Below are positions 1 through 41,036 of a stretch of DNA of 41,036 bases, piece after piece. This DNA is from a virus. The notes beneath the pieces were generated by a model, which did no database searches, was not told the origin of the DNA, and worked only from the letters and a program-made list of their open reading frames with translations. Within the stretch, counting starts at the first letter, position 1. The number at the start of each line of letters is the position of its first letter. The stretch lies in the IMG/VR virus record IMGVR_UViG_3300029612_000018. The stretch is one strand, 5' to 3'. Made by a program: the position numbers and the translations under genes.

Positions 1-99
1 GCCGAAAAAAGCGAAGATGAGAAAACCGCAACAGCGGAAGAAGAATACAGCTACGATTATGCTAAACGCAAGACACTTGTAAACACAAAGCGTGCAGCG
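1..99. repeat. 99-bp terminal direct repeat, identical to 40938..41036; probably an assembly overlap of a circular or circularly permuted genome
   Basis: Read directly: bases 1-99 (GCCGAAAAAAGCGAAGATGAG...AAAGCGTGCAGCG) recur exactly at 40938-41036. The terS reading frame is continuous across the junction. Confidence 0.95.
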
Positions 100-11475: not shown

Positions 11476-11486
11476 GGACTGTATAT

Positions 11487-20400: not shown

Positions 20401-22235
20401 CAGCAAATATCTCTTCGGCTATCAAACAGTTATCTTCTTATCCATTGGCAGCGGCAAGGGTAGGCTGGAAAGCAACCCTTGCAGGACTTAAACACATTCG
20501 TCCGGGAAAGCATACTCCGTTTTTAAACAGAGCGTTACCCGACAGCTACAAGCAAAGTATTCCGTATGATGAAATTGCTAAATATACTCCTATACTTGAA
20601 TACAGAAAACAGGGCAACAACAGCCGTGAAATGGCAGAAATCAGCAGATACAAAGGCTTGATTGACAGTTCGGGTTGGGTAGGACATACTCTTGACCGTT
20701 TAAACTGGATCGAAAAAAATGATGTGCTTATGGTAGAAATGAACTACTGGATTGCCTATGAGCATGTAAAGGGCAATATGGGAATATCTCCCGACAGTAA
20801 GGAATTTATGCCGAATGTTGCAAAAACGCTTGAGGACATTATTAACAATATGATGCCTAACAGTTCGGTAATGCAACAAGGACAGATTTTGAGAAGTAAA
20901 AATCCCGTGAACAGAATATTTACAATTTGCAAAAGTCAGGTTTTCTGTATGGTAAATGCCGCAATGGACGCAAGCGGTGAATACAACGCAAGGCTTAAAG
21001 ATTACAAACAGGCTGCAAGTGAATTTGAAAAGAAGCAGGCGAGAACGGAAGTTAAGATTGCAAAGAAACAGCTTGCAAGGACCTACTCCGCAATTATTGT
21101 CAGTACAGCTATGACCTGCGGAATTTTGATGCCGTTGATAGCCGCATTGTTCGGCAAGTGGGACAGATACCGTGACGAGGACGGCAATATTACTCCGTGG
21201 TCTGTCGGTTCAAGGCTGTTGAAGGATTTCGGTTCTGAATTAACGGGCATGTTCCTTTTCGGTGACACGGTGTACAATACCGTATTAGCACTCATTGATA
21301 AAAACGAAGAATTTTACGGATTATCTCTTCCGGGTGTTGACACGATTAATGACTTTATAACGGGAATCATAAACATTGCCCGTTCCGATACACCCGAAAA
21401 GCTGAGAAAAAATATTTCTTCACTTGTGGGAACACTCGGAATGCTGACAGGACTTCCAACAAAGAATTTGATGAACTTGTTTCAGGGAGCATGCAATCAC
21501 ATTGAAAACTTCACAAAATACGGCGGTACACCGACTGTTAATGACTACGGTGAAGTGTCTATGCAGATGTATGCTAATTACTGCTATGAGGCTCTTATTG
21601 ACGGCGACAAAAAGAAATTTGCAAAACTTTATTCAGAATGGCTGAAAGGAAAGACTTCCACAGGCAAGCAGGTTGATAAAAGCTATATTAACAGCAAACT
21701 GAAAACAGAGCTTGAAGATGATACGGAAATCATTGCCGCAGGAAATGCGTTCTTTAACGGCGATTTGACGGCATATGAAAATACGGTTGAAAAGTATTCT
21801 GACTTAGGCTTTGACAAAACAACCGTTGTAAAAGCCATTAATTCGATTGTCAGTGACCTTGAAGATGAACAAAAAAATGCAGAAGGACTTGATAAGTACG
21901 ACAATGAAGAAGAGAGTGACAGCAAACCCGAATTGTACAAGTATTCGGATGCATTTGACTTTTTGAAGAACGGCGATACTGAAAGCTATGAAAAGGTTGA
22001 AAAATACCTTATGGAGCATAAAGGTAAGACAAAGAATCAAATGAAAAAGCTGATGCAGAGTGCAAGCCGAACTGATCCTATATTTAAAAAGTATATTGAG
22101 GCAAGCAAAAGCAATGATGCAGATACAACGCACACATTGTACAGACAGTTACTGAATATCTACGGCTCTGAAAGCAAGTTTAAATCAGCTCTCAGAAAAT
22201 GTCAGGATAAAATCAAAAAGCAAAAAAGTAAATAA
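11487..22235 (+). CDS. giant multi-domain virion protein (polyvalent-protein type)
   Basis: Uninterrupted ORF of about 3,582 codons from ATG 11487 (the ORF track starts at GTG 11472). Recognised by eye: HEAGH zincin motif at 14883-14897; two MuF-C-terminal-like modules (~15380-15990 and ~19580-20075); a FIRWFGDW...VVDNNGEPLVLYHQT module (~16050-16770); a Gly/Ala-rich hydrophobic region (~12935-13690); a C-terminal TM helix (~21085-21165). Confidence 0.85.
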   Translation: MAQQRKRTAGDDLRDFKAGKISGNFYHNGIDRSDNYIQHTSAPRYITDENGKTQVASYNEWIQQEVFQHQHDLPNDTSSTSSNNKTATNDISVKSSNNTSSSAGSDIKSFFSGNLNNANSSAEDLKDAIKNPNKSLNDRVKGLTYMYNAAVATGDTKTAEKMQKEYDELADRVNKQTEINRHNAKEYARSQSLKGMTEERKALVDERNKYALDNGLVTSTGIDTRKKDRYKVYSEYNSKIDELDKQIAEKQRNGEYDLSDSQKAVLADIGNKANKLTESFENKYKNSTLEQRLNARLHATTSELNWLNKHMYDNATSEELEKYNRELSKEYENLYDRGTTGTDENKEARRRNIEDEQDKIDTYINRAKLSEQKKKEYDDIVDKNVILKTVMQKYYALQHYDDTKHMLASTGHDTDSIKNQVTLDDYNYINKLSDKERTQIEKNFKNLKKEGYDTESLYKWYERERDEEKAAETTRISTEYADEHPILGSIASVGARLGGAVPDAAKYISTDLDKKYNGGDGYINPEATNTAISDAMRAKVSENINNDFGSFLYNTGMSMADFASLLPLNAVPGGQALSLGIMGTSAGVGSANEVINNGGTIDNAVKTGIAAGIAETLFEKVSLEQLSAFKASGKSTFRAAVGNVLKGAFTEGSEEAFTDLANRLTDDAINKDLSSYNLSKKNYMEQGMSEAEAENAASWDFWKNVGLDFAGGAISGGVLNLATAGINLAGAKIDMAQNKESNAQIGKAVMADENFDLDLLIRQGLATDKNDRAYNYAHKMQKLVETDNEGKISAGDVGNLMYLINREVGKNPELVNKIAQVKKQNTREQSNQTVNAQNEQSPTQQNTAQNGQQNAEQAQASTVINATKKADTEDIGKMYGVYAFGKKHPNGIIATDTSTGKVVKVALKSLESSAKINRSDEENTLVFNTNDGKQVNADSITFSDSQFDTIVHSANEFDTYGARNYISNFEEWRESPQAQRMTDDEMLYKYNKAYSAAYSFGREGVKLDSLRETSEYTILKNILGEQIVSQALSTGRRDVDINTQHHANRLTELINRNGRADTSGVSVYADSGTDVSHIPQELINTLGNLATKTGRNIIISDRLADGVNGVAKDGNIILSSEISSQKILATALHEAGHMIKKTNPTEWRTLSDFVADYLVRKGVDLNKMIDRTIERYGNRLQADEHENTRDAALEEIVCDTLMSIASDEKALNIALSTKQNKSKIAAAIKSLIEKVKNWLIDKSTNYGAKAFAKDLEALENLAQRFSEAADTARENITEQAEVQNGERLDVEKYSIGSTDNIVQAEFEKKVDEIEKNTYNSDNVVIMGITPKILQKIGLAPLPLAMTKNHIYSVAVSDTRAKSEGRYHKNTNYHNLGFDTVKDIYNKISDPLMVIAHPDFAVKKNKSKDSTHKVVVLVDLSVGGKQVIAPITVDYEGMYNNTHIDVNLVATYFDKDNINDYIKEAIALETMGKTGFFYLDKKRTQNIFKKSGYQLPSRLKNSGSNIIIRPIDDIVNKKINNITQSKQFIRWFGDWQNSPAKASKVVDNNGEPLVLYHQTEKEFTTFDTKQKGSGEFDSEMPTGIFMKPTNNDIGVGGNIQMPLYASIKNPLIVNNRSELVKFYDKNVQGYTKAKSAIDSVNKEYKAKFNEEMKRENEEYQKLWNAKKNGEISEEEYQKSISRDALDEIMEEWENKVNEASHNAKALIDDYFKNSNYDGVIVNNDVGSFGRSTKTFIAFENTQVKSATDNIGTFDGNNPDIRYSLDEDYDFTDEDEKAGAIHDTLNFSIDDEYDDWLVNDDGKSVFDAVKDEKNPDRRISILYHYAGKTAEHGMRVGKDIRIGQSGMHRLVCNVLQEYGVNLNGKNKSRIEAFKSVVNDFENSVKNDTQSFNDAIESLAEECKEYLKKSSLIDKKHSEWAKDLSDSLKEVTLVIPKGDIDFIKSAYGSITNFRKALMGKINIRTAKGYALIESVNEGSIEDVGNSISEIIGDIAGIDETFNWRSEEGYKTLERFINYDLAEHFVSIDGKSVQSIDEMAIEMAFDVATEYLKQQAKEVVLDNNANKELLHSITEIYNQANEEHKLLLKEKNARYAEQISEQKKNAEKQIKSLVRKNNKKTEQYIKNDIKLRNKIKSDAKEYRITLRATKKTVAEEYRAERDKTKYRQKISTTLERLINRHLKPKPSNNVPISVVKPLYRLLSELTGNYSGFSKGVNDITEKTGYNKTVNQKDERVNKVTLSAETEKLISALNSEIANTDGKITLPPAMRNALLGYNVFDNKGNIKQHFTGLLEDVRNIFEKAEKNGKTSLKDFSLSELKRISTAFSEVKKLLDAANKIVINGKEYDAYLVSRKGAEELKKVTGTHKKGSNTQASTAKRTLLAYRKYMSDPIRFARMISGYHNDSVIVQLMDMLNQGQSDAEQLSIDWTNKYEEQMSRFSYKAKKDYVREQAMEFDGIDPNTKEELVDKKTGEQVKVGLTADMLVEMLLEYEDEYGRAHMMYSGYQVPNIKYIKRKNQQLMYSKDSGCYILPTESDISRIRDYVMNNEIAKTVYEICREMYNEDMQNAVNKVSNEKYGYEIAKVKNYCPITIDEDTVYGTFADVLINRSINSRAFLHERENFKYNRLKLKGATAKLTSQIKSVSSWCGLTMPIETFNRVFNMPRYDHKNDSLVKAVQEENLNSAENIRQKNNTHADEEEKSKLSIDEHFTDKYDEWDKKGGRFSFRVGTTSEVLQRLGVDDKNIWWDTSKILKIKNKHPEMTDDILKQVPNVLKSPIIVMESYTVKGRLVLFGDVYDAKNNPVLVALELNPIGEGGKSLDIIKIASAYGKDSNLQHMIDKSNILYVEPNEKRTHTWLTGNGLQLPLPSSKYGFSDNIKSQNQGDVKYSVEKEAHSTLSIDEVLDFIEREEKQKKKKESTSTTEYFPSMKEIMKQQWGNESEEYISKLMGDLQGSTKQADPGRIDMLTGKYIRAVLTANISSAIKQLSSYPLAAARVGWKATLAGLKHIRPGKHTPFLNRALPDSYKQSIPYDEIAKYTPILEYRKQGNNSREMAEISRYKGLIDSSGWVGHTLDRLNWIEKNDVLMVEMNYWIAYEHVKGNMGISPDSKEFMPNVAKTLEDIINNMMPNSSVMQQGQILRSKNPVNRIFTICKSQVFCMVNAAMDASGEYNARLKDYKQAASEFEKKQARTEVKIAKKQLARTYSAIIVSTAMTCGILMPLIAALFGKWDRYRDEDGNITPWSVGSRLLKDFGSELTGMFLFGDTVYNTVLALIDKNEEFYGLSLPGVDTINDFITGIINIARSDTPEKLRKNISSLVGTLGMLTGLPTKNLMNLFQGACNHIENFTKYGGTPTVNDYGEVSMQMYANYCYEALIDGDKKKFAKLYSEWLKGKTSTGKQVDKSYINSKLKTELEDDTEIIAAGNAFFNGDLTAYENTVEKYSDLGFDKTTVVKAINSIVSDLEDEQKNAEGLDKYDNEEESDSKPELYKYSDAFDFLKNGDTESYEKVEKYLMEHKGKTKNQMKKLMQSASRTDPIFKKYIEASKSNDADTTHTLYRQLLNIYGSESKFKSALRKCQDKIKKQKSK

Positions 22236-27632: not shown

Positions 27633-27635
27633 TCC

Positions 27636-27657
27636 AAATCCAACACGAAATCCAACA
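27636..27657 (+). repeat. 22-bp direct repeat, copy A (candidate integrase arm-type site)
   Basis: AAATCCAACACGAAATCCAACA, identical to 27853-27874. It contains iterated ATCCAACA units and flanks the tRNA-like core. Confidence 0.7.
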
Positions 27658-27695
27658 CATCGAAAATAAAAGTCAGTATTTATCACAATAATAAA

Positions 27696-27732
27696 GCGGA
27701 GAGAATGGGTTCGAATCCCCTTCTCTCCGCCA
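27696..27732 (+). other. tRNA-like acceptor/T-arm minihelix; probable attP core matching the 3' end of a tRNA gene
   Basis: GGAGAGA-ATGGG-TTCGAAT-CCCCT-TCTCTCC-G-CCA. This is a 7-bp acceptor-type stem, a 5-bp T-stem with one T.C mismatch, a canonical T-loop, a discriminator G and an encoded CCA. No D arm or anticodon arm is present. Confidence 0.6.
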
Positions 27733-27745
27733 TATATAAAACTGA

Positions 27746-27793
27746 GCAAACAAGCCGATGTTTAGTATTTATCGGCTGTTTGCCTGTTTTTTT
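27746..27793 (+). terminator. rho-independent terminator
   Basis: GCAAACAAGCCGAT...ATCGGCTGTTTGC stem with one bulged base, followed by CTGTTTTTTT. Confidence 0.75.
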
Positions 27794-27852
27794 AAAAACA
27801 TTTTTTGCGTTAAAACTTGATTTTTTGTGCTAAAAATTGATTTTTTGATTCA

Positions 27853-27874
27853 AAATCCAACACGAAATCCAACA
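27853..27874 (+). repeat. 22-bp direct repeat, copy B (candidate integrase arm-type site)
   Basis: Identical to 27636-27657. It lies 5 nt beyond the integrase stop codon. Confidence 0.7.
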
Positions 27875-27879
27875 TGAAA

Positions 27880-28917
27880 TTATGCTTTCTTTTGATTGTT
27901 CGTTTCTTTTGAAAAATTACTTTCAAAAATGTTGATGATTTTGTTATTCATTTCTTCTTGCTTATCTCTAAGAGTGTGTTGATAAATATTTTGCAGAACT
28001 GACACAGATTTCCAACCGCCGATTTGGGCAATATGTTTGTCAGGAATACCCATTGCGTGAAGTTCTGAGGCGAAGTAGTGCCTTAGTTTGTGGAATGATA
28101 TATGAGGTATGTCGTTTGTATCGACGAGCTTATTAAAGGCATTAGACAGTTTAGTTGGGGTACAACCGAAATATTTCCATTCTCGCACTTCTTTAATGAT
28201 ATGCGGGGGAAGAGGTACAAATCGGTTTCCGGCATTAGTCTTTGGCGGTTTAATAACAATGTTATTATCTTTGTCGTAGACAGCGGCTTTGTTCACGGTG
28301 ATACCTATATCTGTAATGTCGTCGGGAGTTAATGCGCAGATTTCAGAACGGCGAAGGCTGCCCGAACTTGCAAGCAAGATAGGCACACGGATAAAGTCAT
28401 TTGCATTATCAAGCAATGTATTGATTTCGGCAGTTGTCGGTATTGTGTACTTGGGTTCGACCTTTTGTGGAAGTCTTGTTGTGAGAGTTAATTGAGGTTT
28501 ATATGCTCCCAACACAGCGGACAACAGTCCGTGCGAATTTCGTACAGATTTAGGAGAATATGTGGCAGACATCTCATTAACTGCCACTTGGATATGCTCT
28601 TGTGTTATTACACTGAGCTTCATCGGCATAAGGCTCTTGAAGTCATTTCTTAAATTTTTCTCGTATCCGTCAATGGTTGACGGAGCAAGAACAGAAGATT
28701 TACTGTCAATATATCTTCGGTACGCTTGTGCAAGAGTCATATTAGTGTATGTCAGCTCTCTGTTCTCACGATCGTGCGTGAACTCCATTGCCATATACTC
28801 GGCTTCTTTTTTTGTTTGGGCTGTAAATGACTTGTAGTGCCATTTACCGTTTTCGTCTTTGTAGTCAGGTACTAAAACACGATAGTTGCCCGATTTCAGT
28901 TTTTTGGCTTTTGCCAT
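27880..28917 (-). CDS. int: tyrosine recombinase / phage integrase
   Basis: 345 aa. C-terminal catalytic signature (RRSEI..., HKLRHYFAS, GGWKS...YQH). The N-terminal KSGNYRVLV...GKWHYKSF block resembles an arm-binding domain. It is adjacent to the attP-like region. Confidence 0.9.
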   Translation of the reverse strand: MAKAKKLKSGNYRVLVPDYKDENGKWHYKSFTAQTKKEAEYMAMEFTHDRENRELTYTNMTLAQAYRRYIDSKSSVLAPSTIDGYEKNLRNDFKSLMPMKLSVITQEHIQVAVNEMSATYSPKSVRNSHGLLSAVLGAYKPQLTLTTRLPQKVEPKYTIPTTAEINTLLDNANDFIRVPILLASSGSLRRSEICALTPDDITDIGITVNKAAVYDKDNNIVIKPPKTNAGNRFVPLPPHIIKEVREWKYFGCTPTKLSNAFNKLVDTNDIPHISFHKLRHYFASELHAMGIPDKHIAQIGGWKSVSVLQNIYQHTLRDKQEEMNNKIINIFESNFSKETNNQKKA

Positions 28918-28927
28918 AATATCATCT

Positions 28928-28945
28928 CCTGTAATGTGGTATCGG
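28928..28945 (-). repeat. 18-mer CCGATACCACATTACAGG, copy 6 (minus strand, upstream of int)
   Basis: The plus strand reads CCTGTAATGTGGTATCGG. On the minus strand the 18-mer ends 10 nt before the int ATG and merges with its RBS (ACAGGAG). Confidence 0.9.
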
Positions 28946-28989
28946 CTCTTGTTCCACCAAGTAAAAATGCCGACACCCTTTCAAATTTT

Positions 28990-29022
28990 CCTCGTACTGT
29001 TCCAGCAGTACGGGGATTTTTT
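28990..29022. terminator. hairpin between the Mrr-like remnant and int; plus-strand terminator-like
   Basis: CCTCGTACTG(TTCCAG)CAGTACGGGG stem with one mismatch, followed by ATTTTTT on the plus strand. On the minus strand it directly follows the stop of the 29021 ORF but lacks a good T-run. Confidence 0.4.
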
Positions 29023-29443
29023 AATTACCAAACCATTTAAAGGCTCGTCTAAATCCTGCTTCTTCTGCTTCAGCCACCGTCATTGCGTAGAATTCCCCTT
29101 TCTTGCTAATTTTAGTAGAATCATATTGTTGGTCGAAAGGCAAATGATATATTTTTGTTTCACCATACATATCACGACCAATATTACATTTTATACATGG
29201 GTAATCATCAACTTCAATATTTTCTTTGAATTTTATACCTAAGTATTTTGCCATTTTCTTAGCCATAGGAGATAGTTGAATATTTGTTATTAAAACTCCC
29301 TTAACATTTTCTTTAGGGCAATTGTGCTCAATGCAATAGCTTGCCATAGTACCATATAGTTGAGTTATATGTTTTTCATGTATTTCTTTTTTTGAACTCC
29401 AATATTTACATTCTCTTGTAGACTTGACCACGGTTGCCGACAT
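29021..29443 (-). pseudogene. N-terminally truncated Mrr-like (restriction endonuclease fold) protein with a C-terminal sunset-type domain
   Basis: The ORF retains ECKYW...VKGVLITN...AKKMA (Mrr_cat-like from the E-x-K onward) and IKCNIGRDMYGETKIYHLPFDQQYDSTKI...AEAEEAGFRRA. The upstream catalytic Asp region is missing, and the 5' end overlaps the relE-like gene in another frame. Confidence 0.5.
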
Positions 29444-29657
29444 CAACAATTGTTATAAGAAGAATATCGTTATTGATTTCATAGATAACACGATAATTGC
29501 CGACACGCAGACGGTAAGCGTTGCTGTTTCCTGACAAGGCTTTTACATCACCGTCAGGAAGTTTTGAAACAGCTTTCAAAATCCGTTCTTGTTGATTACG
29601 GGGCTGAGATTTAATAAACTTCTGAGCCTTTTTGTTCAGTTCAATTTTATACTTCAT
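29406..29657 (-). CDS. RelE/ParE-family type II toxin
   Basis: 83 aa from ATG 29657. Pattern DVKALSG..NAYRLRVGNYRVIYEI...ILLITIVDVGNRGQVY. The start overlaps the upstream stop by ATGA. Confidence 0.8.
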   Translation of the reverse strand: MKYKIELNKKAQKFIKSQPRNQQERILKAVSKLPDGDVKALSGNSNAYRLRVGNYRVIYEINNDILLITIVDVGNRGQVYKRM

Positions 29658-29878
29658 CACAGATTTATCCCCAACTCATTGGCAAAATCTTCAAGGCTGA
29701 CATTTTCGCTTGAGTCAGACGGGTTATTCTTGTATTCGTCATAGAGTTTCTGGCAGTAAGCGTCATCTTCTGCGTCATCTACGATATGTCTTAAACTTTG
29801 CAACATAGTGAGCAGTTCTTCAAGCTGTTCTTCTGAAAAGTCGTTTATAAGGTTAATAATTTTTTCTTTTGCTGACAT
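29657..29878 (-). CDS. putative antitoxin
   Basis: 73 aa from ATG 29878 behind AAGGAGG. Small and acidic, translationally coupled to the toxin by a 4-nt overlap. No family recognised. Confidence 0.5.
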   Translation of the reverse strand: MSAKEKIINLINDFSEEQLEELLTMLQSLRHIVDDAEDDAYCQKLYDEYKNNPSDSSENVSLEDFANELGINL

Positions 29879-29944
29879 ACGGAATCCTCCTTGTTTTATA
29901 GTATTCAAAATTCAATATAAATAATATTTCCTACACGCTTGAAA

Positions 29945-30301
29945 TCAGGCGTGTTTTTCTTTTATGTCTGAAAAATCGGGAGTTGTGTATTTTGCGTTGC
30001 CGATTAAATCTTCTGAATATTCAAGCAATTTTTCTTTTCCGCTGTCATTCAGAAGGCGATAGTTGGAAATCAGTTTACTTTCAACTTGCGTGTAGCTTTG
30101 ACTGTTACTCAAGTCATATAAATCATCAAGAGTAAAACCCATACTATGTACTATAGCTTTTGTACTGGTCAGAAAAGGTTCTTTTGTTTGACCGGCAAAC
30201 AATTTATCAATTGTGCTTTTTGAAATTCCGGTTTCTTCTGAAATCTGTTTTGATGTTTTCCCAGAAATTTTTTTCATTTTTTTTAGCGATTCAAGCCACA
30301 T
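29945..30301 (-). CDS. CI-like repressor (XRE-family HTH)
   Basis: 118 aa from ATG 30301 behind GAGGTG. HTH block TSKQISEETGISKSTIDKLFAGQ. It is divergent from a cro-like gene across a promoter/operator region. Confidence 0.75.
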   Translation of the reverse strand: MWLESLKKMKKISGKTSKQISEETGISKSTIDKLFAGQTKEPFLTSTKAIVHSMGFTLDDLYDLSNSQSYTQVESKLISNYRLLNDSGKEKLLEYSEDLIGNAKYTTPDFSDIKEKHA

Positions 30302-30321
30302 TTTTTTCACCTCACAACTGA

Positions 30322-30350
30322 ATAATACCACCTTCAAATCTATAAGTCAA
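30322..30350 (-). promoter_or_regulatory. leftward promoter for the repressor operon
   Basis: On the minus strand: TTGACT (30350-30345), a 17-nt spacer, then TATTAT (30327-30322). Confidence 0.65.
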
Positions 30351-30391
30351 TAAAAAATTGCCGACTTCGGAAACATTTTTCAAAAAAGGTA

Positions 30392-30420
30392 TTGACAATT
30401 GCGGACGGATATATTATAAT
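30392..30420 (+). promoter_or_regulatory. rightward early promoter (PR-like)
   Basis: Perfect consensus: TTGACA (30392-30397), a 17-nt spacer, then TATAAT (30415-30420). ATTGC-containing operator-like sites lie at about 30357, 30398 and 30428. Confidence 0.8.
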
Positions 30421-30462
30421 GATAGAAATTGCTTATATCGGCAATTTAAGGAGGTGAAAGTA

Positions 30463-30666
30463 ATGAAAAATCTCAAAGCTGAAATGGCAAGAACTGGAGT
30501 TAGCAAGGAAGATATCATGAATCTCTTAGGTTGTTCTCTGAGAACTGTTGACAATAAGTTAGATGAGATAACTGATTTTACTATTCCTGAAGCATTTAAA
30601 ATCAGAGATACTTTCTTCCGTAACATGAGAATGGAATATCTTTTCTGTTCACAGAAAACCGCATAA
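30463..30666 (+). CDS. Cro-like small regulator
   Basis: 67 aa from ATG 30463 behind AAGGAGGTG. It is the first gene of the rightward operon, with an HTH-like segment SKEDIMNLLGCSLRTVDNKL. Confidence 0.6.
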   Translation: MKNLKAEMARTGVSKEDIMNLLGCSLRTVDNKLDEITDFTIPEAFKIRDTFFRNMRMEYLFCSQKTA

Positions 30667-30669
30667 GAA

Positions 30670-30687
30670 CCGATACCACATTACAGG
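30670..30687 (+). repeat. 18-mer CCGATACCACATTACAGG, copy 1
   Basis: Starts 4 nt after the cro-like stop. A conserved extension (AAAATAACTGCAAGGGGGTGAG) runs to the ATG at 30714, 26 nt after the 18-mer. Confidence 0.9.
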
Positions 30688-30713
30688 AAAATAACTGCAA
30701 GGGGGTGAGAAGA

Positions 30714-30869
30714 ATGATGAGTGATGATGACAGAGCAAAGGTTGTAAAGTGCCTTGTGAATTTTATTGAAAGAGTTACAAAAAAAGAACGACCTTCAAAG
30801 GCAGAAGTGGAAGTTCTGCCCGAGGTCGTAAGAGCTTTAAGAGAATTTATTACCGTTCAGAATTCTTAA
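30714..30869 (+). CDS. small hypothetical protein (51 aa)
   Basis: ATG behind the GGGGGTGAG RBS of repeat copy 1. Reads MMSDDDRAKVVKCLVNFIERV... It is below the ORF-track size cutoff and was read manually. Confidence 0.5.
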   Translation: MMSDDDRAKVVKCLVNFIERVTKKERPSKAEVEVLPEVVRALREFITVQNS

Positions 30870-31044
30870 CATCCAAATAAGAATTACCGAGGGTGTCGGC
30901 AATACCGTTGAATAGTGCAGAATAGAATTCAGCTACCTGCTTTCCACCCTTTTCGTCAATTGAAATGCTTAAGTTTGGAGCAATAGCCACTAAAACATCT
31001 TTAGCGACTTTATTTGCCAATTCATCAATTGAATAATTACGCAT
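30850..31044 (-). CDS. minus-strand small ORF (64 aa), function unknown
   Basis: ATG 31044 behind GAGGAGGTGAG. It is convergent with, and overlaps by 20 nt, the 30714 ORF. A TATAAT-containing stretch lies upstream. Confidence 0.55.
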   Translation of the reverse strand: MRNYSIDELANKVAKDVLVAIAPNLSISIDEKGGKQVAEFYSALFNGIADTLGNSYLDVKNSER

Positions 31045-31123
31045 AATAAACTCACCTCCTCTCTGATTATAAATAATATCACGAGTTGAGATGAAATACA
31101 AGTTAAGTAAACAGCGTAAAGAA

Positions 31124-31141
31124 CCGATACCACATTACAGG
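31124..31141 (+). repeat. 18-mer CCGATACCACATTACAGG, copy 2
   Basis: The 44-nt stretch GAACCGATACC...GGGGGTGAG is identical to copy 1. Confidence 0.9.
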
Positions 31142-31166
31142 AAAATAACTGCAAGGGGGTGAGGAA

Positions 31167-31370
31167 ATCAATTCTAAGAAACTCAAAGAGTTAATAAAAA
31201 ATGCAGGCTACACACAGGTAAGACTTGCAGAAGAACTTGACATATCACCCAACTCTCTTTCATCTAAAATAACGGGTAAGTCCGAATTTACTTTAAGAGA
31301 AGCAAAAAAAGTTTGTGAATGTCTTGATATAGCAGACCTGAGCAAAAGGGCAGAGTTGTTTTTGACATAA
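31167..31370 (+). CDS. XRE-family HTH protein lacking a canonical start codon (ATC at the position of the repeat-associated ATG)
   Basis: The frame encodes INSKKLKELIKNAGYTQVRLAEELDISPNSLSSKITGKSEFTLREAKKV... There is no ATG, GTG or TTG between the RBS and the HTH. ATC 31167 aligns with the ATG of copies 1 and 3. Confidence 0.5.
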   Translation: MNSKKLKELIKNAGYTQVRLAEELDISPNSLSSKITGKSEFTLREAKKVCECLDIADLSKRAELFLT

Positions 31371-31371
31371 A

Positions 31372-31666
31372 AAAACAAGCACCGACGGTCCTTTCATCGG
31401 TACTTGTTCCCAATTTTTTTACCTGTGTAAATTGCAGTCAGAAGTGAGTACAAAGGTTTCTCTCGCTTTTTTAACTGGTGAGGAACCAGTGAACTTTGTC
31501 TCAACATCTGACATCAGCAAAAGGACTACCGATTTCTTGATTTACTGCGTCACTTAAGCGGTTTGGCTCCGCTGTGATAGCCTTAGCATTCGCATTTAAC
31601 AGGAACCGGCAAAGTCAAAAGTTTGGTCAAAATAACCAACTCCTTCCTTTTGCCCAAAAATAGGCT
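31372..31666 (-). ncRNA. candidate ~295-nt minus-strand transcript, noncoding or micropeptide-coding
   Basis: It is bounded by a near-consensus minus-strand promoter (31673-31701) and the bidirectional terminator. No ORF above 32 codons. Internal hairpins include ACTGGT/ACCAGT and AGCGG/CCGCT. The only RBS-preceded ORF is 15 codons (TTG 31630). Confidence 0.45.
31374..31420. terminator. bidirectional rho-independent terminator
   Basis: AACAAGCACCGA(11-nt loop)TCGGTACTTGTT stem with one G.T pair. It is flanked by AAAAA on the left and CCCAATTTTTTT on the right, so each strand sees a T-run. Confidence 0.7.
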
Positions 31667-31672
31667 AATTTC

Positions 31673-31701
31673 ATTATACAAATATTTTTGTATAACGTCA
31701 A
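31673..31701 (-). promoter_or_regulatory. strong sigma-A-type promoter on the minus strand
   Basis: On the minus strand: TTGACG (31701-31696), a 17-nt spacer, then TATAAT (31678-31673). Confidence 0.65.
31674..31695. promoter_or_regulatory. perfect 9-bp inverted repeat (operator candidate) overlapping the promoter
   Basis: TTATACAAA-TATT-TTTGTATAA. It overlaps the spacer and -10 of the minus-strand promoter and carries TATAAC on the plus strand. Confidence 0.6.
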
Positions 31702-31712
31702 ATTATTTTAAA

Positions 31713-31730
31713 CCGATACCACATTACAGG
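31713..31730 (+). repeat. 18-mer CCGATACCACATTACAGG, copy 3
   Basis: Followed by GAAATAACTGCAAGGGGGTGAGAGGA and the ATG at 31757, 26 nt after the 18-mer. Confidence 0.9.
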
Positions 31731-31756
31731 GAAATAACTGCAAGGGGGTGAGAGGA

Positions 31757-32020
31757 ATGTTTAAGTTTAAAAAGCGTAAGCGTAAGGAGATATACAACAT
31801 TGCCAAGACAGCCACGTGGGATGTTTTGTGTTCGCCTGAGTTTAGCGAACAGGTCGGAGAAAAATATCCCGATGATATGTTACACAAAAACCGTATGAGC
31901 GTGTGGATTGGAAATTTTAACAGTTACCGGGACCAAAAAATGTTTATGAAACAGTTCAGAAAGTTTGCCACCGAACTTGAGCAGAAGAGAAACCGCCACC
32001 TTTTCTATATTTTTCACTAA
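31757..32020 (+). CDS. hypothetical early protein, paralog 1 of 2
   Basis: 87 aa from ATG 31757. KEIYNIAKTATWDVL...VGEKYP...IGNFNSYRDQKMFMKQFRKFATELE parallels the next ORF. Confidence 0.6.
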   Translation: MFKFKKRKRKEIYNIAKTATWDVLCSPEFSEQVGEKYPDDMLHKNRMSVWIGNFNSYRDQKMFMKQFRKFATELEQKRNRHLFYIFH

Positions 32021-32032
32021 CAGGAGAACAGT

Positions 32033-32398
32033 ATGAACTTAATTGAAAAGATTTCTAAGTTAAAAAAACACTTAGAAAATAAGCATTTTGTGCGCAGTTT
32101 TATGAAGGCAGCTATTATCAAGCGTGAAGAAGTTTACAAGATAACAGAAACCGCCACAAAGGATGTACTGGATTCACTTGACTGCACCGAAAGAATCGGA
32201 GAGAAAGTTCCCTATAAATTGTGGTTTGCCCCTTCCGCAAAATTATTGGTCGGAAATTTTGAGGACAAGACCGACGCTGTTATGTTTATGAAACATTTCG
32301 GAAAATTTATTGCTGAGTTTGAGAAGGAGAGAGGGGGCGGGATAGTTTGTATCTATAATCCCGATACAGACGGATTGCCGCCAAACGGAATAATGTAG
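32033..32398 (+). CDS. hypothetical early protein, paralog 2 of 2
   Basis: 121 aa with RBS AGGAGA. EEVYKITETATKDVL...IGEKVP...VGNFEDKTDAVMFMKHFGKFIAEFE. Confidence 0.6.
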   Translation: MNLIEKISKLKKHLENKHFVRSFMKAAIIKREEVYKITETATKDVLDSLDCTERIGEKVPYKLWFAPSAKLLVGNFEDKTDAVMFMKHFGKFIAEFEKERGGGIVCIYNPDTDGLPPNGIM

Positions 32399-32403
32399 CA
32401 GAC

Positions 32404-32763
32404 TTATCTAAAAAGGGCAATAAGGGAAATGATAAGTGAAGTGACAGAAGCAAAGTAAGGTAAATAATGCAGTATCCAGTTTTTTCTTCTGAACTTTGCA
32501 TATGCAATTCCTTTAGCAGACGGATAGAAGTATGTATATATTCTTTCTTCCTTAGAGTAAATCAAACCACATTCAAGAAGATAGTCCGTACATGTTTTTG
32601 CATAATCTCCATAGTATTTTATGTTATCGGAATCGGATCTCTTTTTCGGAGGCTTAAAAAAATCATCGTGCAGGCTTTCGAGCTTTAAAAGATTTGCTTT
32701 AGGATTTTCGCATATAAATCTGAATATATTTTCTGTCGGTTTGTCAAATTGATAAAATTCCAT
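32404..32763 (-). CDS. minus-strand ORF encoding a C-terminally membrane-anchored protein (119 aa)
   Basis: ATG 32763 behind AAAGGTGG. C-terminal hydrophobic helix WILHYLPYFASVTSLIISLIALF. It is opposite in orientation to the surrounding early genes. Confidence 0.55.
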   Translation of the reverse strand: MEFYQFDKPTENIFRFICENPKANLLKLESLHDDFFKPPKKRSDSDNIKYYGDYAKTCTDYLLECGLIYSKEERIYTYFYPSAKGIAYAKFRRKNWILHYLPYFASVTSLIISLIALFR

Positions 32764-32811
32764 AATTAAACCACCTTTCGTTTTGATTATAACATAACGG
32801 TCAAGACAGAA

Positions 32812-32829
32812 CCGATACCACATTACAGG
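32812..32829 (+). repeat. 18-mer CCGATACCACATTACAGG, copy 4
   Basis: Perfect 18-mer. The downstream leader diverges (AAAATAAAAGTAGGGAGAATCTAT) before the ATG at 32854. Confidence 0.9.
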
Positions 32830-32853
32830 AAAATAAAAGTAGGGAGAATCTAT

Positions 32854-33024
32854 ATGAATGAAATCAGAGTGAAGATTAAAGACCTCATCAAAGAGCTTCA
32901 GATGTTGGAAAGAGACGGCTACGAATGTGCTGACCTCACAATTGAAGAAGCCGAAGAAGGCATTCCGGCTCGCATTATGCTCAGCGACTACGGCTGTGTA
33001 TTTGAATGCAAAGGGGGAGAATGA
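32854..33024 (+). CDS. small acidic protein, tandem paralog 1 of 3 (56 aa)
   Basis: Read manually: MNEIRVKIKDLIKELQMLERDGYECADLTIEEAEEGIPARIMLSDYG... RBS AGGGAG. Confidence 0.55.
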   Translation: MNEIRVKIKDLIKELQMLERDGYECADLTIEEAEEGIPARIMLSDYGCVFECKGGE

Positions 33025-33026
33025 CT

Positions 33027-33206
33027 ATGCAAATAATTAAAGTTAAAATTGATACCTTAATCACTAAACTTGAAGAGATCAAGGCAAGCGGACACGAAAC
33101 GGTGCATTTGTCTATTGTTGAGGGTGTGCCAAAACACAAGATCCCAGCTCATGTTGACCTTGATGCAGACAAGGATTTTCGCTGTGTGCTTGAGGAGAGA
33201 AAGTGA
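33027..33206 (+). CDS. small protein, tandem paralog 2 of 3
   Basis: MQIIKVKIDTLITKLEEIKASGHETVHLSIVEGV... from ATG 33027 behind AAGGGGGAGA. The ORF track starts earlier, at 33006. Confidence 0.55.
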   Translation: MQIIKVKIDTLITKLEEIKASGHETVHLSIVEGVPKHKIPAHVDLDADKDFRCVLEERK

Positions 33207-33397
33207 ACCGAATTACAGTAAGGATTGATGACCTAATCGGTCAGCTTAACGAATTAAAACGAGATGGTGCTGAAAAAGTTTTGCTTGAAATTGAAGAAGG
33301 TGTTGCAGACCCCGAGGAGAATTGTCCGAACAGGATCAATCTGATGTCTGCGTATCACCCGAGTGATTTTTTTGCAGAAGTTTATGAAAGCGACTAG
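33203..33397 (+). CDS. small acidic protein, tandem paralog 3 of 3
   Basis: MNRITVRIDDLIGQLNELKRDGAEKVLLEIEEGV... GTG start overlapping the upstream TGA, with RBS GAGGAG. Confidence 0.55.
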   Translation: MNRITVRIDDLIGQLNELKRDGAEKVLLEIEEGVADPEENCPNRINLMSAYHPSDFFAEVYESD

Positions 33398-33403
33398 CAA
33401 AAG

Positions 33404-33421
33404 TCGATACCAGATTACAGG
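33404..33421 (+). repeat. degenerate 18-mer copy 5 (TCGATACCAGATTACAGG)
   Basis: 16 of 18 bases match. Followed by AATAAATAATGAAAGGGTGAGAAGA and the ATG at 33447, 25 nt after the 18-mer. Confidence 0.75.
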
Positions 33422-33446
33422 AATAAATAATGAAAGGGTGAGAAGA

Positions 33447-33698
33447 ATGCCAAGAAAATTAGCTAAGCCCGAGGACCAAATGAAAAGACAGTTGATTGCC
33501 AATATACAGTATGAGGCAGAAATCAGGAGTATTGACCGTGAAGGACAGGCTCTTGTGGCACATTGCTCTGAGGGCACCTACAGAAAAAGAATTAAAGATC
33601 CGGGTACTTTTACGGTGGAAGAATTATCAAGGCTTGCCAACAAATTTGGCATACCTATTCAAAACCTTTTCAAGGTGAGGGTGGTAGCTGATGAATGA
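33447..33698 (+). CDS. hypothetical protein with a possible HTH (83 aa)
   Basis: ATG 33447 behind AGGGTGAG. Segment FTVEELSRLANKFGIPIQNLF. Confidence 0.5.
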   Translation: MPRKLAKPEDQMKRQLIANIQYEAEIRSIDREGQALVAHCSEGTYRKRIKDPGTFTVEELSRLANKFGIPIQNLFKVRVVADE

Positions 33699-34949: not shown

Positions 34950-35171
34950 ATGAAAATGAGAGTCTATAAGTGTGATAGCTGTAACAAAGTTATCACAGAT
35001 CCGTACACAGTTAACATGAGGGAATTCTATTTAGGGTTTGATGCTGATTGACTTGGCCTTATCGGGATTGCAATTCCTTTTGAATGCAAGAGAAAAATAA
35101 AAATACATCTATGTGATGATTGTTTCAAAGGCTTGCATGTTATTGCCGAAAGAAAGAAGCGTGAAAAGTAA
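34950..35171 (+). pseudogene. zinc-ribbon-like small ORF interrupted by one in-frame TGA (35049-35051); pseudogene or read-through candidate
   Basis: MKMRVYKCDSCNKVITDPYTVNMREFYLGFDAD-TGA-LGLIGIAIPFECKRKIKIHLCDDCFKGLHVIAERKKREK. The two CxxC pairs lie on opposite sides of the stop. The frame ends at a TAATG overlap with the ParB-like gene. Confidence 0.5.
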
Positions 35172-36502
35172 TGGAAAGAAAACCGACATTGACTACGATT
35201 GCAATCGAAAAACTGCATCCACATCCTGACAACCCTCGTAAGGTTATCGGGGACATTGATGAGCTTGCTGACAGCATTAAGGCAAACGGCATTCTCCAAA
35301 ACCTCACGGTTGTGCCGATGAATGACGATTGGACGGAGTTTACTGTTATCATCGGACACAGAAGATTAGCAGCGGCAAAGCAGGCAGGATTAACTGAACT
35401 TCCGTGCGCTGTTGTCGAGATGACTGAAAAGGAACAGTTATCTACAATGTTGACTGAAAATATGCAGCGGTCAGATTTGACAGTTTATGAGCAGGCAAAA
35501 GGATTTCAGATGTTGATTGACCTCGGGGACAGCGTTGCCGAGGTGGTAGAGAAAACAGGCTTTAAAGAAAGCACCGTAAGAAGGAGACTCAAACTTGCAG
35601 AACTTGATGAAGAATCCTTCAAGGACAGCCAGCTCAGACAACCCACATTGGCAGACTACGAGCGTCTGAATCAGATTAAGGATATTGATGTAAGGAATGA
35701 ATTACTTAAATCAATCGGTACTAATAACTTTGATAATCGACTTTATTCAGCCGTGCAAAAGCAGAAAACAGATGAAGAAAAAGAAAAAATTGAAAAGCTC
35801 TGTCTTGAACATGGAATGATTAAAGCGCAGAAACATGACGAAATTCCAAGCAATTACGAATATACGGGATTTTTTGCGTTCAAAGATTTGATTGGTAAAG
35901 ACTTTGCGGACGGCAGGAAAAGATATTTTTATTTTGGTTACGGCTCAAACATCTACATTTACGCAGAAGCATTAGAAAAGCAGGAAAAGAACGATGCCGA
36001 AGAAGAAAAGCGAAAGCTTGAAGAGCAGAGATGGGACGAGCTTGTTGAACAGGCGGAAGAAATAGACGAACGCTGTGAGGCCCTCAGAAGAGACTTTATG
36101 CTTAATACGAATTTCAATGACAGCAACAAGAAGCAGGAGCTTGTGAAGTTTATTGTAGCCCAAGTGGCGGCAGGAGCCAGTAACAAAAAATATCGTTTTG
36201 AAGAAATTATCGAACACGACTTTGAAGATGATGAAAACATAGATAGCTACATCAACGAACATTGGAACAATGACAGCGGCAGAATGCTAATGGCGACGGC
36301 ATACGCTTTGAGCCAGAGGATTTACGGTTCGTTCGATTATATCAGTGTAAATTATTCGGACAAGACATTCAGCCGAAAAAACAACCCGGAATTAAACAAA
36401 TTTTATGCCTTACTCTGCAAACTCGGCTATGTGCTGAGTGATGAAGAAATTCAGCTCCGTGACGGCACACATCCGATTTTTACAACAGGTGAAGTAAAAT
36501 AA
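35171..36502 (+). CDS. ParB/Srx N-terminal (ParB-like nuclease) domain protein
   Basis: 443 aa. LHPHPDNPRK...IKANGILQNLTVVP...IIGHRRLAAAKQAGL...LTENMQRSDLTVYEQA are ParB N-domain signatures. Confidence 0.8.
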   Translation: MERKPTLTTIAIEKLHPHPDNPRKVIGDIDELADSIKANGILQNLTVVPMNDDWTEFTVIIGHRRLAAAKQAGLTELPCAVVEMTEKEQLSTMLTENMQRSDLTVYEQAKGFQMLIDLGDSVAEVVEKTGFKESTVRRRLKLAELDEESFKDSQLRQPTLADYERLNQIKDIDVRNELLKSIGTNNFDNRLYSAVQKQKTDEEKEKIEKLCLEHGMIKAQKHDEIPSNYEYTGFFAFKDLIGKDFADGRKRYFYFGYGSNIYIYAEALEKQEKNDAEEEKRKLEEQRWDELVEQAEEIDERCEALRRDFMLNTNFNDSNKKQELVKFIVAQVAAGASNKKYRFEEIIEHDFEDDENIDSYINEHWNNDSGRMLMATAYALSQRIYGSFDYISVNYSDKTFSRKNNPELNKFYALLCKLGYVLSDEEIQLRDGTHPIFTTGEVK

Positions 36503-39288: not shown

Positions 39289-40041
39289 ATGTACACATAT
39301 CGAAGAACAATCAAAAGCGGAGATATGATTGAGGTTGAATACTATCAATCAATCCGAAAAATCGGAAAAAACTACGGCGGAAGGAAATCAAATAATTCTT
39401 TAAGTCCTGCCAAGATGAGAAAAGCAAACAAGCTCCGTGCAGTCAAGCATATGCAGAGGCTTATAAATGCAAACTTTGGGAGCGGTGATTTTTTCTGTCG
39501 CTTTTCTGCGCCGTATGGAACATATGAAACAGAAGAAGAGTTTCGCAAAGAGGTAGGCAAGTGGCTTTACAGAATAAATTACCGCCTGAAAAAGCAGGGC
39601 AAGGGCCGATTAAAGTACATAGCGTTTATTGAATGCGGTAAGTCGGGCAAGAATTGGCATATCCACATTATCGTAAGCAAAGAGGACAGGGAACTGCTGT
39701 CTGAACAATGGCCATATGAAAACGGTCAGAACTTTACTCCGCTATATAAGAACGAGAATTTCAAGAAATTGGCTGAGTACATAACAAAAGATTTGACAGG
39801 TAAAGATGAGATTGATGCCGCACAAAAGCGAATGATGACAAGCCGAAATCTTAAAAAGCCTGAATCGGTTACAAGAAAGGCAAAAAGAAAAGAGATCAGA
39901 GCACTTGAACGTGGCGAAATGATTGAAGCGCCCGAAGGTCATTATCTCATTGAGGACGATTACTCAATGAACTACTCTGTCATAGGCGGTGCAAAATGGT
40001 ATTTTTGTTTTTTGCCGATTACGCAGAGGCGGAAATGGTAA
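39289..40041 (+). CDS. HUH-type rolling-circle replication initiator-like protein (pC194/pUB110 Rep_1-like motifs)
   Basis: 250 aa. Motif order is FFCRFSAPY, then LKYIAFIECGKSGKNWHIHIIV (the HUH motif), then LAEYITKD (catalytic Tyr-x-x-K-D type). Confidence 0.6.
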   Translation: MYTYRRTIKSGDMIEVEYYQSIRKIGKNYGGRKSNNSLSPAKMRKANKLRAVKHMQRLINANFGSGDFFCRFSAPYGTYETEEEFRKEVGKWLYRINYRLKKQGKGRLKYIAFIECGKSGKNWHIHIIVSKEDRELLSEQWPYENGQNFTPLYKNENFKKLAEYITKDLTGKDEIDAAQKRMMTSRNLKKPESVTRKAKRKEIRALERGEMIEAPEGHYLIEDDYSMNYSVIGGAKWYFCFLPITQRRKW

Positions 40042-40562: not shown

Positions 40563-41036
40563 ATGAGTCAAAAAAAAGACTTGAAAGGACAGCAGACAGA
40601 ATTAAATGAGCAAAAAGTGATTGACTGGGTGCAAATTAAAGCTGAATATATCAGCGGCACAATGTCTGCTTCAAAACTTGCCGAAAAGCACGGAGTGAGC
40701 GTGTATGCCATACGAAAAAGGTCGGGGAAAGAACGCTGGCAGGAGCTGAGGAAGCAGAATCAGAGTGAAACCGCAAACAAAATAGCCAAGAAAATCAACA
40801 CAGAGAAAGTGAAGAAAACCGTCAGAGAGATTGACAGGGTTGTGGCCGTTGCCTCAAAACTCATCACAAAGCTGAACAGAGCCGTTAATGAGCTTGACAA
40901 GGACGAGGAACTCATCAAGAAGAAAGTAACGGTTAAAGCCGAAAAAAGCGAAGATGAGAAAACCGCAACAGCGGAAGAAGAATACAGCTACGATTATGCT
41001 AAACGCAAGACACTTGTAAACACAAAGCGTGCAGCG
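40563..41036 (+). CDS. terS: terminase small subunit, N-terminal part (continues at base 100 after the 99-bp overlap)
   Basis: ATG behind AAAGGCGGTGAG. The HTH-like block ISGTMSASKLAEKHGVSVYAIRKRSGKERWQELR is typical of phage small terminases. The frame is open to the window end. Confidence 0.8.
   Translation, partial: MSQKKDLKGQQTELNEQKVIDWVQIKAEYISGTMSASKLAEKHGVSVYAIRKRSGKERWQELRKQNQSETANKIAKKINTEKVKKTVREIDRVVAVASKLITKLNRAVNELDKDEELIKKKVTVKAEKSEDEKTATAEEEYSYDYAKRKTLVNTKRAA
40938..41036. repeat. second copy of the 99-bp terminal repeat
   Basis: Identical to bases 1-99. Confidence 0.95.

Follow-up and report, generated by a model that had tools for sequence, protein, structure and literature searches.

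What does an 18-nucleotide (nt) sequence do that stands six times in one part of a viral genome, each time just upstream of a gene and in the direction of that gene? The question is raised by the IMG/VR virus record IMGVR_UViG_3300029612_000018, which was analysed over its whole length of 41,036 nt (the window). Because the termini of the window (1-99 and 40938-41036) are identical over 99 nt, the record represents a complete contig of about 40.9 kb that is circular (or terminally redundant), and it is the genome of a temperate phage. We call the repeated sequence, CCGATACCACATTACAGG, the leader box. Comparison with related loci showed, at the level of sequence, that it is a conserved and orientation-locked element of one family of temperate gut phages. 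The best-supported statement on its biology is that the box is a joint at which gene cassettes are combined differently. In our view RNA is the most likely level at which it acts, and we tentatively favour the possibility that the box is the RNA-level target of an antisense RNA, which would be encoded opposite the leader of the integrase gene (int).

A search of the whole window with up to three mismatches gave five perfect copies of CCGATACCACATTACAGG and one copy matching at 16/18 positions. Dinucleotide-preserving shuffles yielded an expectation of 0.01 matches at this threshold, and six copies were reached in 0/100 shuffles; the six positions listed by an earlier inspection of the letters (the sequence-only reading) were thus borne out. 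Elsewhere in the 41 kb only chance-level matches with up to six mismatches were found, and the box is therefore confined to 28.9-33.4 kb. All six copies point the same way as the gene downstream. The copies, together with int, are as follows.

27880..28917, minus strand: tyrosine integrase gene (int), with matches to Phage_integrase and Phage_int_SAM_3; its leader holds the inverted box
28928..28945, minus strand: sole inverted copy, perfect (read 28945-28928), which enters the int Shine-Dalgarno sequence AGGAG and ends 10 nt before the ATG at 28917
30670..30687, plus strand: copy 1, perfect, beginning 3 nt past the cro stop and ending 26 nt before the ATG at 30714 of a gene of 51 amino acids (aa); conserved 49-nt leader 30668-30716
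31124..31141, plus strand: copy 2, perfect, after the divergent minus-strand open reading frame (ORF) 30850-31044 and 25 nt before the ATC at 31167 of an HTH_3 gene (31167-31370); conserved leader 31122-31170
31713..31730, plus strand: copy 3, perfect, adjoining the divergent promoter of the FuFi-1 RNA and 26 nt before the ATG at 31757; conserved leader 31711-31759
32812..32829, plus strand: copy 4, perfect, after the divergent minus-strand ORF 32404-32763 and 24 nt before the ATG at 32854 of the first of three paralogs
33404..33421, plus strand: copy 5, the 16/18 copy, a stable variant (TCGATACCAGATTACAGG), 6 nt past the stop of the third paralog and 25 nt before the ATG at 33447 of an 83-aa gene that opens the conserved replication-side block

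Direct reading confirmed the spacing reported before, i.e., 24-26 nt between the box and the start codon for the five plus-strand (cassette) copies and 10 nt at int. The cassette copies (5/6) lie 13-14 nt upstream of a separate Shine-Dalgarno sequence; at int, the AGG of the box belongs to the AGGAG Shine-Dalgarno itself. Copies 1-3 have 49 nt in common at 90-100% identity, through the ribosome-binding site to the start codon, in agreement with the stretch of about 44 nt described previously. Copies 4 and 5 show little similarity outside the box, and the int copy has only the 18-mer in common with the cassette copies, its flanks being unrelated. The sequence-only reading had placed the copies after cro, after minus-strand ORFs, after an antisense unit and after the paralog array; these contexts stand, with two corrections, namely that the "antisense unit" in front of copy 3 is the FuFi-1 RNA and that the gene of copy 2 would start at an ATC.

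It had also proposed to look for the element in related phages, where we found it to be family-wide and to stand before int and before early cassettes. Some 55 related contigs of viral origin carry the box, as do some 50 metagenome loci. A scan of IMG/VR for the exact 17-mer gave 69 loci, of which about six are chance matches. Loci were also gathered without using the box, via a downstream gene coding for a 237-aa protein and via the terminator on the int side, and 107 distinct cassette contexts come from loci for which the box was not a criterion; the 15-mer TTGGCTTTTGCCATA proved too unspecific as a search anchor. Within these 107 contexts, box positions 4, 11-12 and 14-16 never vary, and positions 2, 3, 5, 6, 9 and 13 almost never do. 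Position 10 is free (C in 78, G in 26, A in 2 and T in 1), positions 17-18 read GG 77 times and TA 30 times (28%), and positions 1, 7 and 8 alternate between C and T. The conserved parts are CGATACCA and ATTACA, in this order, with the free position 10 between them. An allele with a three-base deletion, CCGA---CCACATTACAGG, is recurrent.

Every copy of the box is followed by a Shine-Dalgarno sequence and a start codon, and at least 12 unrelated gene families lie downstream. Genomes contain 2-7 copies. In each of the 24 loci that span both regions, a single inverted copy stands at int and is accompanied by 1-6 plus-strand copies, and none of them has an inverted box before any other minus-strand gene. 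Among 185,579 species genomes, the box was present only in two contigs of one metagenome-assembled genome (MAG) of Ruminococcus, one of which is a prophage fragment with the int leader block described below, and in one chance match. No equivalent replacement repeat was found in the box-less loci L114, L117, L119 and L120 (locus numbers are ours), which contain only one 3-nt-deleted copy, nor any in the box-less locus L263. Nothing on the box sequence was found in the literature, and no GenBank phage matched the window at the DNA level.

The sequences that meet at the box differ from genome to genome. In total, 136 distinct contexts fall into 22 upstream and 40 downstream classes, which occur in 82 combinations. 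Pairwise homology typically ends 0-10 nt to the left of the box; on the right it reaches either 5-10 nt past the box or as far as the start codon (+25-35). Through the box, at least seven gene families are linked to the end of cro, and conversely one gene with many upstream flanks was observed too; several divergent cro alleles all finish with AAAACCGCATAAGAA and then the box. In the more distant relative L263 there is no box after cro, where TAAGGAGGTG...ATG directly follows, and its copy of the 83-aa gene (77% identity) has an ordinary leader without the box. Shared flanks on different genes, taken together with the box-less L263, therefore indicate that the box plus its leader is an inserted, exchangeable joint, and the identical leaders of 44-49 nt are therefore substrates for homologous recombination. 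The third option of the sequence-only reading, a boundary for cassette shuffling, is well supported by these breaks of homology at the box or the start codon. A shufflon-like inversion between the inverted and the direct copies was considered and rejected, as no relative has the cro end joined to int.

The same data could be taken to mean that the box is a pure boundary sequence, i.e., a portable translation-initiation leader without a regulatory role that was spread and homogenised by recombination. The number of combinations, the homology that ends at the box edges or the start codon, the several gene families joined to one cro end and the ability of L263 to manage without the box, with TAAGGAGGTG straight after cro, are all consistent with this explanation. 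We nevertheless consider it improbable, since the int copy shares the 18-mer only and copies 4 and 5 share little beyond it, and since a recombination hitch-hiker should give graded rather than sharp-edged identity. Moreover, positions 11-12 and 14-16 are invariant, and position 13 nearly so, while the flanks differ.

A role beyond that of a joint is suggested by the inverted copy. The sequence-only reading had correctly placed it in front of int, and had overlooked that it is surrounded by a self-contained plus-strand unit running from a promoter-like to a terminator-like sequence. This unit was found by aligning, in all relatives, the stretch that extends from the int ATG to the next gene upstream, and in the window it consists of the following parts.

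28910..29022, plus strand: putative antisense RNA unit, from promoter-like sequence to terminator, as proposed from sequence
28910-28920, plus strand: TTTGCCATAAT, extended -10-like, whose CAT is the complement of the int ATG
about 28926-28928, plus strand: predicted RNA start
spacer of 7-10 nt between TTTGCCATAAT and the anti-box
28928-28945, plus strand: anti-box CCTGTAATGTGGTATCGG, i.e., the inverted copy read on the plus strand
28948-28961, plus strand: small variable hairpin, with one compensatory change (TTG/CAA to TCG/CGA)
28969-28977, plus strand: GCCGACACC, which pairs with GGTATCGGC
28989-29016 and 29017-29022, plus strand: strong intrinsic terminator made of a 12-bp hairpin and T6 (T6-7 in relatives)

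Across relatives, a sequence GCCGAC(A/G)CC pairs with the 3' half of the anti-box and is followed by an AU-rich stretch. From TTTGCCATAAT to the T-run, the block (about 100 nt) is kept in 27 distinct IMG/VR versions and 52 metagenome loci, and on the alignments it appears to move as a unit between different phages and neighbour genes. Its right edge is the T-run, beyond which at least five unrelated sequence classes are found. Its other edge is ATGGCAAA, and the coding sequence downstream has one of four unrelated N-termini that share ATGGCAAA only. In L294, the coding sequence after the block specifies a 78-aa protein that is not an integrase, and in L296 int is deleted past codon 11 while the block is still intact. 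The terminator is strand-specific: the T-run exists on the plus side only, and two U.G pairs of the plus strand are A.C mismatches on the int strand. No plus-strand ORF that would need this terminator was found upstream. The first 13 nt of the predicted RNA (28924-29024), which are the complement of ACAUUACAGG, stay unpaired in its fold (-30.3 kcal/mol, z = -4.3), and the RNA matches no Rfam family. The block was found without plus-strand box copies in L240, L263, L290, L297, L249 and L296 (in the L240-type loci, i.e., the first four, the int copy is the variant CCGATACCA-ATTGCAGG), and plus-strand copies without the block were never seen among the loci gathered.

Two side observations concern the int leader. 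A part of the block, AGGGTGTCGGCA (28966-28977), recurs in inverted orientation at 30889-30900 on the plus strand, in a hairpin between the convergent genes 30714-30869 and 30850-31044; by chance alone one would expect about 0.3 matches of a 12-mer of this kind, and the recurrence may be a coincidence. The related prophage L263 contains a 54-nt duplicate of the 5' end of int (4457-4510 and 6059-6112) in front of a second, shorter ORF, which is without the leader block.

In the mechanism that we propose, a plus-strand RNA made from the unit would cover the int Shine-Dalgarno in cis and would pair in trans with the box in the five early leaders over 18/18 positions (16-25 bp when flanks and variants are included). 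With the leader of copy 1 and its flanks, 19 + 6 bp can be drawn around one mismatch. Such an RNA would tie the synthesis of Int to the early accessory cassettes by one of two routes: it might silence int and the cassettes in the lysogen, or, once P_R fires, the early transcript with its several copies of the box might titrate away the RNA and thereby permit Int synthesis. The complete scheme, in which a portable antisense RNA gene of about 100 nt controls int in cis and a regulon of tagged cassettes, or in which the five-tag early transcript is a sponge that releases Int, the tag being both address and recombination joint, is in our judgement rather unlikely.

Nucleic-acid pairing is favoured because the identity over 18 nt has sharp edges, because no protein tracks the box, because the box is absent from host genomes, and because the one inverted copy is found at the 5' end of the unit, whose parts resemble a promoter, a seed and a terminator. 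Uninterrupted and sharp-edged identity of this length is typical of nucleic-acid pairing. We also counted in favour of an RNA that one inverted copy stands at int in 24/24 spanning loci, that the block is portable and its terminator strand-specific, that the 5' end of the predicted RNA is left unpaired and box positions 11-16 are conserved (11-12 and 14-16 being the invariant ones), and that the block occurs without plus-strand copies while the converse was not seen. Likewise counted was the absence of a protein partner that follows the box, be it among the cI, cro and int alleles or in the 83-aa gene, which is present in the box-less L263. The transitions found in the box were compatible with wobble pairing in 7 cases vs. 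2 in the targets and in 2 vs. 0 in the int copy, as compared to 120 vs. 130 in a control region; by our own estimate this bias has p of about 0.04-0.1, and a contig of 0.9x coverage is the source of one change in the int copy.

Several observations weigh against an antisense RNA. The proposed promoter is an imperfect extended -10 (CATAAT) that lacks a -35, and the start and the second codon of int put a further constraint on its bases. The stem formed by GGTATCGGC and GCCGACACC is at least as good on the strand of the int mRNA, and the plus-strand terminator could be a simple insulator that protects the lysogeny genes from antisense read-through. The box of the cassettes lies 13 nt upstream of the Shine-Dalgarno, which is not a classical site for occlusion. 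Clear compensatory co-variation is missing, because the genomes with a variant int copy, CCGATACCAAATCACAGG (L105, L118 and L299), retain mostly consensus targets; this variant has T13>C, which is G.U-compatible, and C10>A, and copy 5 of L118 also has A10. Other int families also have an A-run and a hairpin upstream without dispersed copies of their leader. Furthermore, the co-occurrence counts are not independent, because the genomes all come from a single close lineage, with at least 90% identity of the 237-aa marker. Finally, position 10, which would be in the middle of the duplex, varies both in the targets (C, G, A, T) and in the int copy, and a free position there looks more like the spacer between two half-sites contacted by a protein.

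As to the architecture of other int leaders, L130, L150 and L164, with unrelated integrases that start with MAKAKKLPSGNW, have an A-run and a hairpin about 100-130 nt upstream of int, which suggests that a terminator oriented against int is a common arrangement; no inverted repeats of the int leader were found elsewhere in these three loci.

The spacer-like position 10 leads to the explanation that is nearly as likely as the antisense RNA, although it too is rather unlikely when taken alone: the box might be an operator for a sequence-specific protein of the phage or the host, acting on DNA as a roadblock (stoperator-like) or on the mRNA leader, where it would control translation as has been suggested for the start-associated sequences of mycobacteriophages. 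The bipartite conservation (CGATACCA, free position 10, ATTACA) agrees with it, as do the traits that the box shares with the start-associated sequences (SAS) of mycobacteriophages discussed below, i.e., asymmetry, co-orientation with the gene, association with starts, restriction to the non-structural region and absence from host genomes. The positions of three copies fit as well, since copy 4 overlaps the -35 region of the extended -10 promoter that serves the divergent minus-strand ORF 32404-32763, and divergent promoters directly adjoin copies 2 and 3. No candidate for the protein was found, however. The box is unchanged with cI alleles of 100, 76, 62, 45, 37 and 33% identity and with different cro alleles, and it persists with int alleles of 56-98% identity. 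In the early region, searches with Pfam and PHROGs turned up no other candidate that might bind DNA or RNA. The 83-aa protein, which is similar to helix-turn-helix proteins, was rejected as the cognate factor, as L263 has a copy of it and no box. In addition, the int leader block moves among unrelated elements, which would part the site from its protein, and a contiguous asymmetric site of 18 nt is long for one protein.

An operator or stoperator of the immunity system was rejected because the box is independent of the immunity allele over the whole range of cI identities (33-100%). The operators of the cI/cro region are of the AATTGC...GCAATT type and distinct from the box. Stoperators, the sites of gp71 in phage L5 and in further phages of Cluster A, are bound by the immunity repressor; they resemble the box in being asymmetric, in lying in short intergenic spaces in one orientation to transcription, and in occurring on both genome arms, and they differ from it in this same point, the constancy of the box across cI alleles. 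The box is not an arm-type site of Int either, because the repeats that flank the attP core instead, AAATCCAACACGAAATCCAACA, are unrelated to it.

The sequence-only reading had also offered an alternative promoter specificity or a phage regulator. This option found no positive support: neither a sigma factor nor an RNA polymerase nor a co-varying DNA-binding protein was detected. Its statement that the box does not look like a sigma-A -35/-10 pair was upheld by a consensus scan and manual reading. A sigma-70 promoter was rejected, since no two-hexamer site exists at any copy except a weak one (9/12) at copy 5, and manual reading found none that would suit every copy or spare the leader of int; a -10 placed downstream of the int box would remove that leader, because the Shine-Dalgarno directly follows the box.

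A promoter for machinery other than sigma-A, i.e., a polymerase that is phage-encoded or delivered by the virion, or an alternative sigma factor, with transcription starting at the 3' edge of the box, is quite improbable. What speaks for it is that copies 2 and 4 and the int copy have no sigma-70-type promoter before them, that cassettes restart after opposite-strand genes, and that a start at ACAGG would leave the int Shine-Dalgarno intact. In length and asymmetry the box resembles T7-type promoters, and CCGATA is similar to the -10 element of sigma-D/sigma-28. The podovirus-like virion module, with its mostly unannotated ejected polyvalent protein of 3587 aa, also counts in its favour. Against these points, no polymerase or sigma domain was found in any ORF, even when the 3587-aa protein was searched in pieces of 600 aa and with PDB sequences included. 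A dedicated polymerase or sigma factor was accordingly rejected from the Pfam, PHROGs and PDB-sequence searches of all sizeable ORFs, which covered the 3587-aa protein by sequence only. The sigma-D/sigma-28 consensus, a TAAA -35 element 15-16 nt upstream of GCCGATAT, is matched by CCGATAC at 6-7/8 positions of the -10, but TAAA at the required spacing occurs in 0/6 copies, and a conserved TAAA -35 at sigma-D spacing is lacking. The GG at the putative +1/+2 is TA in 28% of the contexts, copies 1 and 5 lie within an uninterrupted operon right after stop codons, and phages with the int copy only would need a dedicated machinery for a single promoter.

The position of copy 1 brings to mind lambda nutR, which sits directly after cro. 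The box might be a nut- or ops-like site for loading an antiterminator, or an RNA processing site, that is re-used after opposite-strand genes or terminators. Besides the first copy after cro, as in lambda, it would account for the single copy in the leftward operon as against several in the rightward one, for a box that is orientation-locked and transcribed, and for an early operon that is broken by convergent genes and by the FuFi-1 terminator. This is very improbable, as neither a boxB-like hairpin nor a common fold was found, no N-, Q-, NusG- or RfaH-like protein was detected, and the box of the int leader comes after the hairpin and not before it.

A shared RNA structure was rejected more generally, since the six copies fold no better than shuffled sequences (z between -0.7 and +0.6) and have no common hairpin. 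Of the three options offered by the sequence-only reading, the RNA-level operator also failed in the form in which it was proposed, a CsrA-type site with an ACA-GGA core: GG is replaced by TA in 30/107 contexts and is thus dispensable, no hairpin presents the motif, overlap with a Shine-Dalgarno exists at int only, and the conserved ATTACA and CGATACCA are far longer than such a site. The FuFi-1 RNA was also tried as a partner and rejected, because its duplex with the box was no better than with a shuffled box (90/300 shuffles were as good) and because FuFi-1 is found in 13/50 related loci.

FuFi-1 (31373-31594, minus strand; Rfam RF02986, 115.6 bits) has its own sigma-70 promoter (11/12, 31701-31673) and its own terminator; its presence in only 13 of the 50 loci therefore indicates that it is itself a swappable cassette. 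The HTH_3 gene behind copy 2 (31167-31370) has no ATG, GTG or TTG start and is preceded by an in-frame TAA at 31146. Because there is no canonical start after this stop codon, the ATC at 31167, which is conserved in 15 relatives, must, judging from the sequence, be its start, as the sole possible start codon. Behind copy 4, three tandem paralogs (32854-33397, plus strand) code for acidic proteins of 56-64 aa without family match. At least the third of them (par3) is present in every box-bearing locus that covers the region and absent from the box-less L114-L120 and L263.

Among described phenomena, the SAS of Cluster K mycobacteriophages, 5'-GGGATAGGAGCCC, comes closest; it is a 13-nt sequence present in 11-19 copies (Pope et al., 2011, PMC3203893). 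It was defined as having no more than two deviations from GGGATAGGAGCCC, holding the Shine-Dalgarno and lying 3-7 bp from the start codon, and its authors suggested "either RNA or protein" action (PMC3203893). Like the box, the SAS is short, asymmetric and multi-copy, lies just upstream of varied gene families and co-oriented with them, is restricted to the non-structural part of the genome, is absent from host genomes, and occurs mostly in one orientation with a single opposite copy. The box differs in its unrelated sequence, in its length (18 vs. 13 nt) and copy number (2-7 vs. 11-19), in the absence of the inverted repeats named ESAS and in occurring in a gut phage of Firmicutes rather than in phages of another host phylum. 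In addition, 5/6 copies stop 24-26 nt short of the start codon and precede a separate Shine-Dalgarno instead of enclosing it, and the opposite copy of the box, unlike that of the SAS, is associated with a gene (int) and lies within a promoter-to-terminator-like unit. On sequence, length and Shine-Dalgarno position, the box is not a member of the SAS family.

The repeated promoter and stem-loop elements of T4-type phages (PeSLs) are made up of promoters that are strong and sigma-70-like, together with terminator stem-loops (Arbiol et al., 2010, PMC2839356). They flank small non-essential early genes in the hyperplastic region and are recombination sites for modular shuffling (PMC2839356). The comparison with PeSLs made by the sequence-only reading holds by analogy for the shuffling joint, since both elements border insertions, deletions and replacements between close relatives; it does not extend to the promoter and the stem-loop, as both are missing from the box.

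If the RNA model is right, the nearest mechanistic relatives, by analogy, would be three small RNAs that act in cis and trans. The c4 RNA of P1/P7 and the CI RNA of satellite P4 pair with repeated complementary boxes in their own operon, and RNA-OUT of IS10 pairs with the ribosome-binding site of a recombinase mRNA. The box system has no sequence or structural relationship to them (no Rfam match); the RNA here is putative, and its targets would lie upstream of the Shine-Dalgarno sequences of many unrelated cassettes.

As for the phage itself, its virion and lysis genes include large terminase, portal, major head protein, internal virion protein, holin and endolysin. Next to the internal virion protein is the gene for the 3587-aa polyvalent protein (11472-22235, plus strand), which has two MuF_C domains, one ART-PolyVal domain and about 3000 aa without detectable domain. 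No tail-tube or tape-measure proteins were matched among the window ORFs; the virion module therefore looks podovirus-like, and so probably is the phage. The late operon has its own plus-strand terminator (27747-27797) after a probable attP (27634-27877). Here a tRNA 3'-end-like core, GGTTCGAATCC...CTCCGCCA (about 27697-27736; no complete tRNA according to ARAGORN), has on both sides the direct repeats AAATCCAACACGAAATCCAACA (27634-27660 and 27855-27877), which are likely arm sites of Int. The lysogeny side contains Mrr-like and ParE-type toxin genes; cI and cro form a divergent pair there, with a P_R that is a perfect sigma-70 promoter. Between int and cI (29021-29908, minus strand), moron-like genes code for an Mrr_cat-like nuclease fragment, a ParE-family toxin and a small upstream ORF, which is probably the antitoxin; in relatives these genes are present or absent independently of each other. 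The early and replication side comprises mosaic small early genes, a ParB-like protein, YopX and a G2P-type Rep. The replication block of this 41-kb dsDNA phage combines a rolling-circle Rep-like gene of the G2P/ORF2 type (39289-40041, plus strand) with a 443-aa ParB_N/HTH_ParB protein (35171-36502, plus strand). Relatives of the phage come from human-gut metagenomes, the sole named genome with the box is the Ruminococcus MAG, and the host is probably Ruminococcus.

Start-associated boxes in the early regions of phages have been known since 2011, when the SAS was described, without an established mechanism. The leader box is an example from abundant, uncultured phages of the human gut and comes with a concrete, testable mechanism for such elements; close relatives with and without the box, variant boxes and the portable int-leader block are natural comparators. 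If the RNA model is true, it would show a temperate phage that couples the expression of its integrase to early transcription, and accessory genes that are wired into phage regulation by the same sequence that enables their recombination. If it is false, cassette exchange in these phages is clearly marked by the box all the same.

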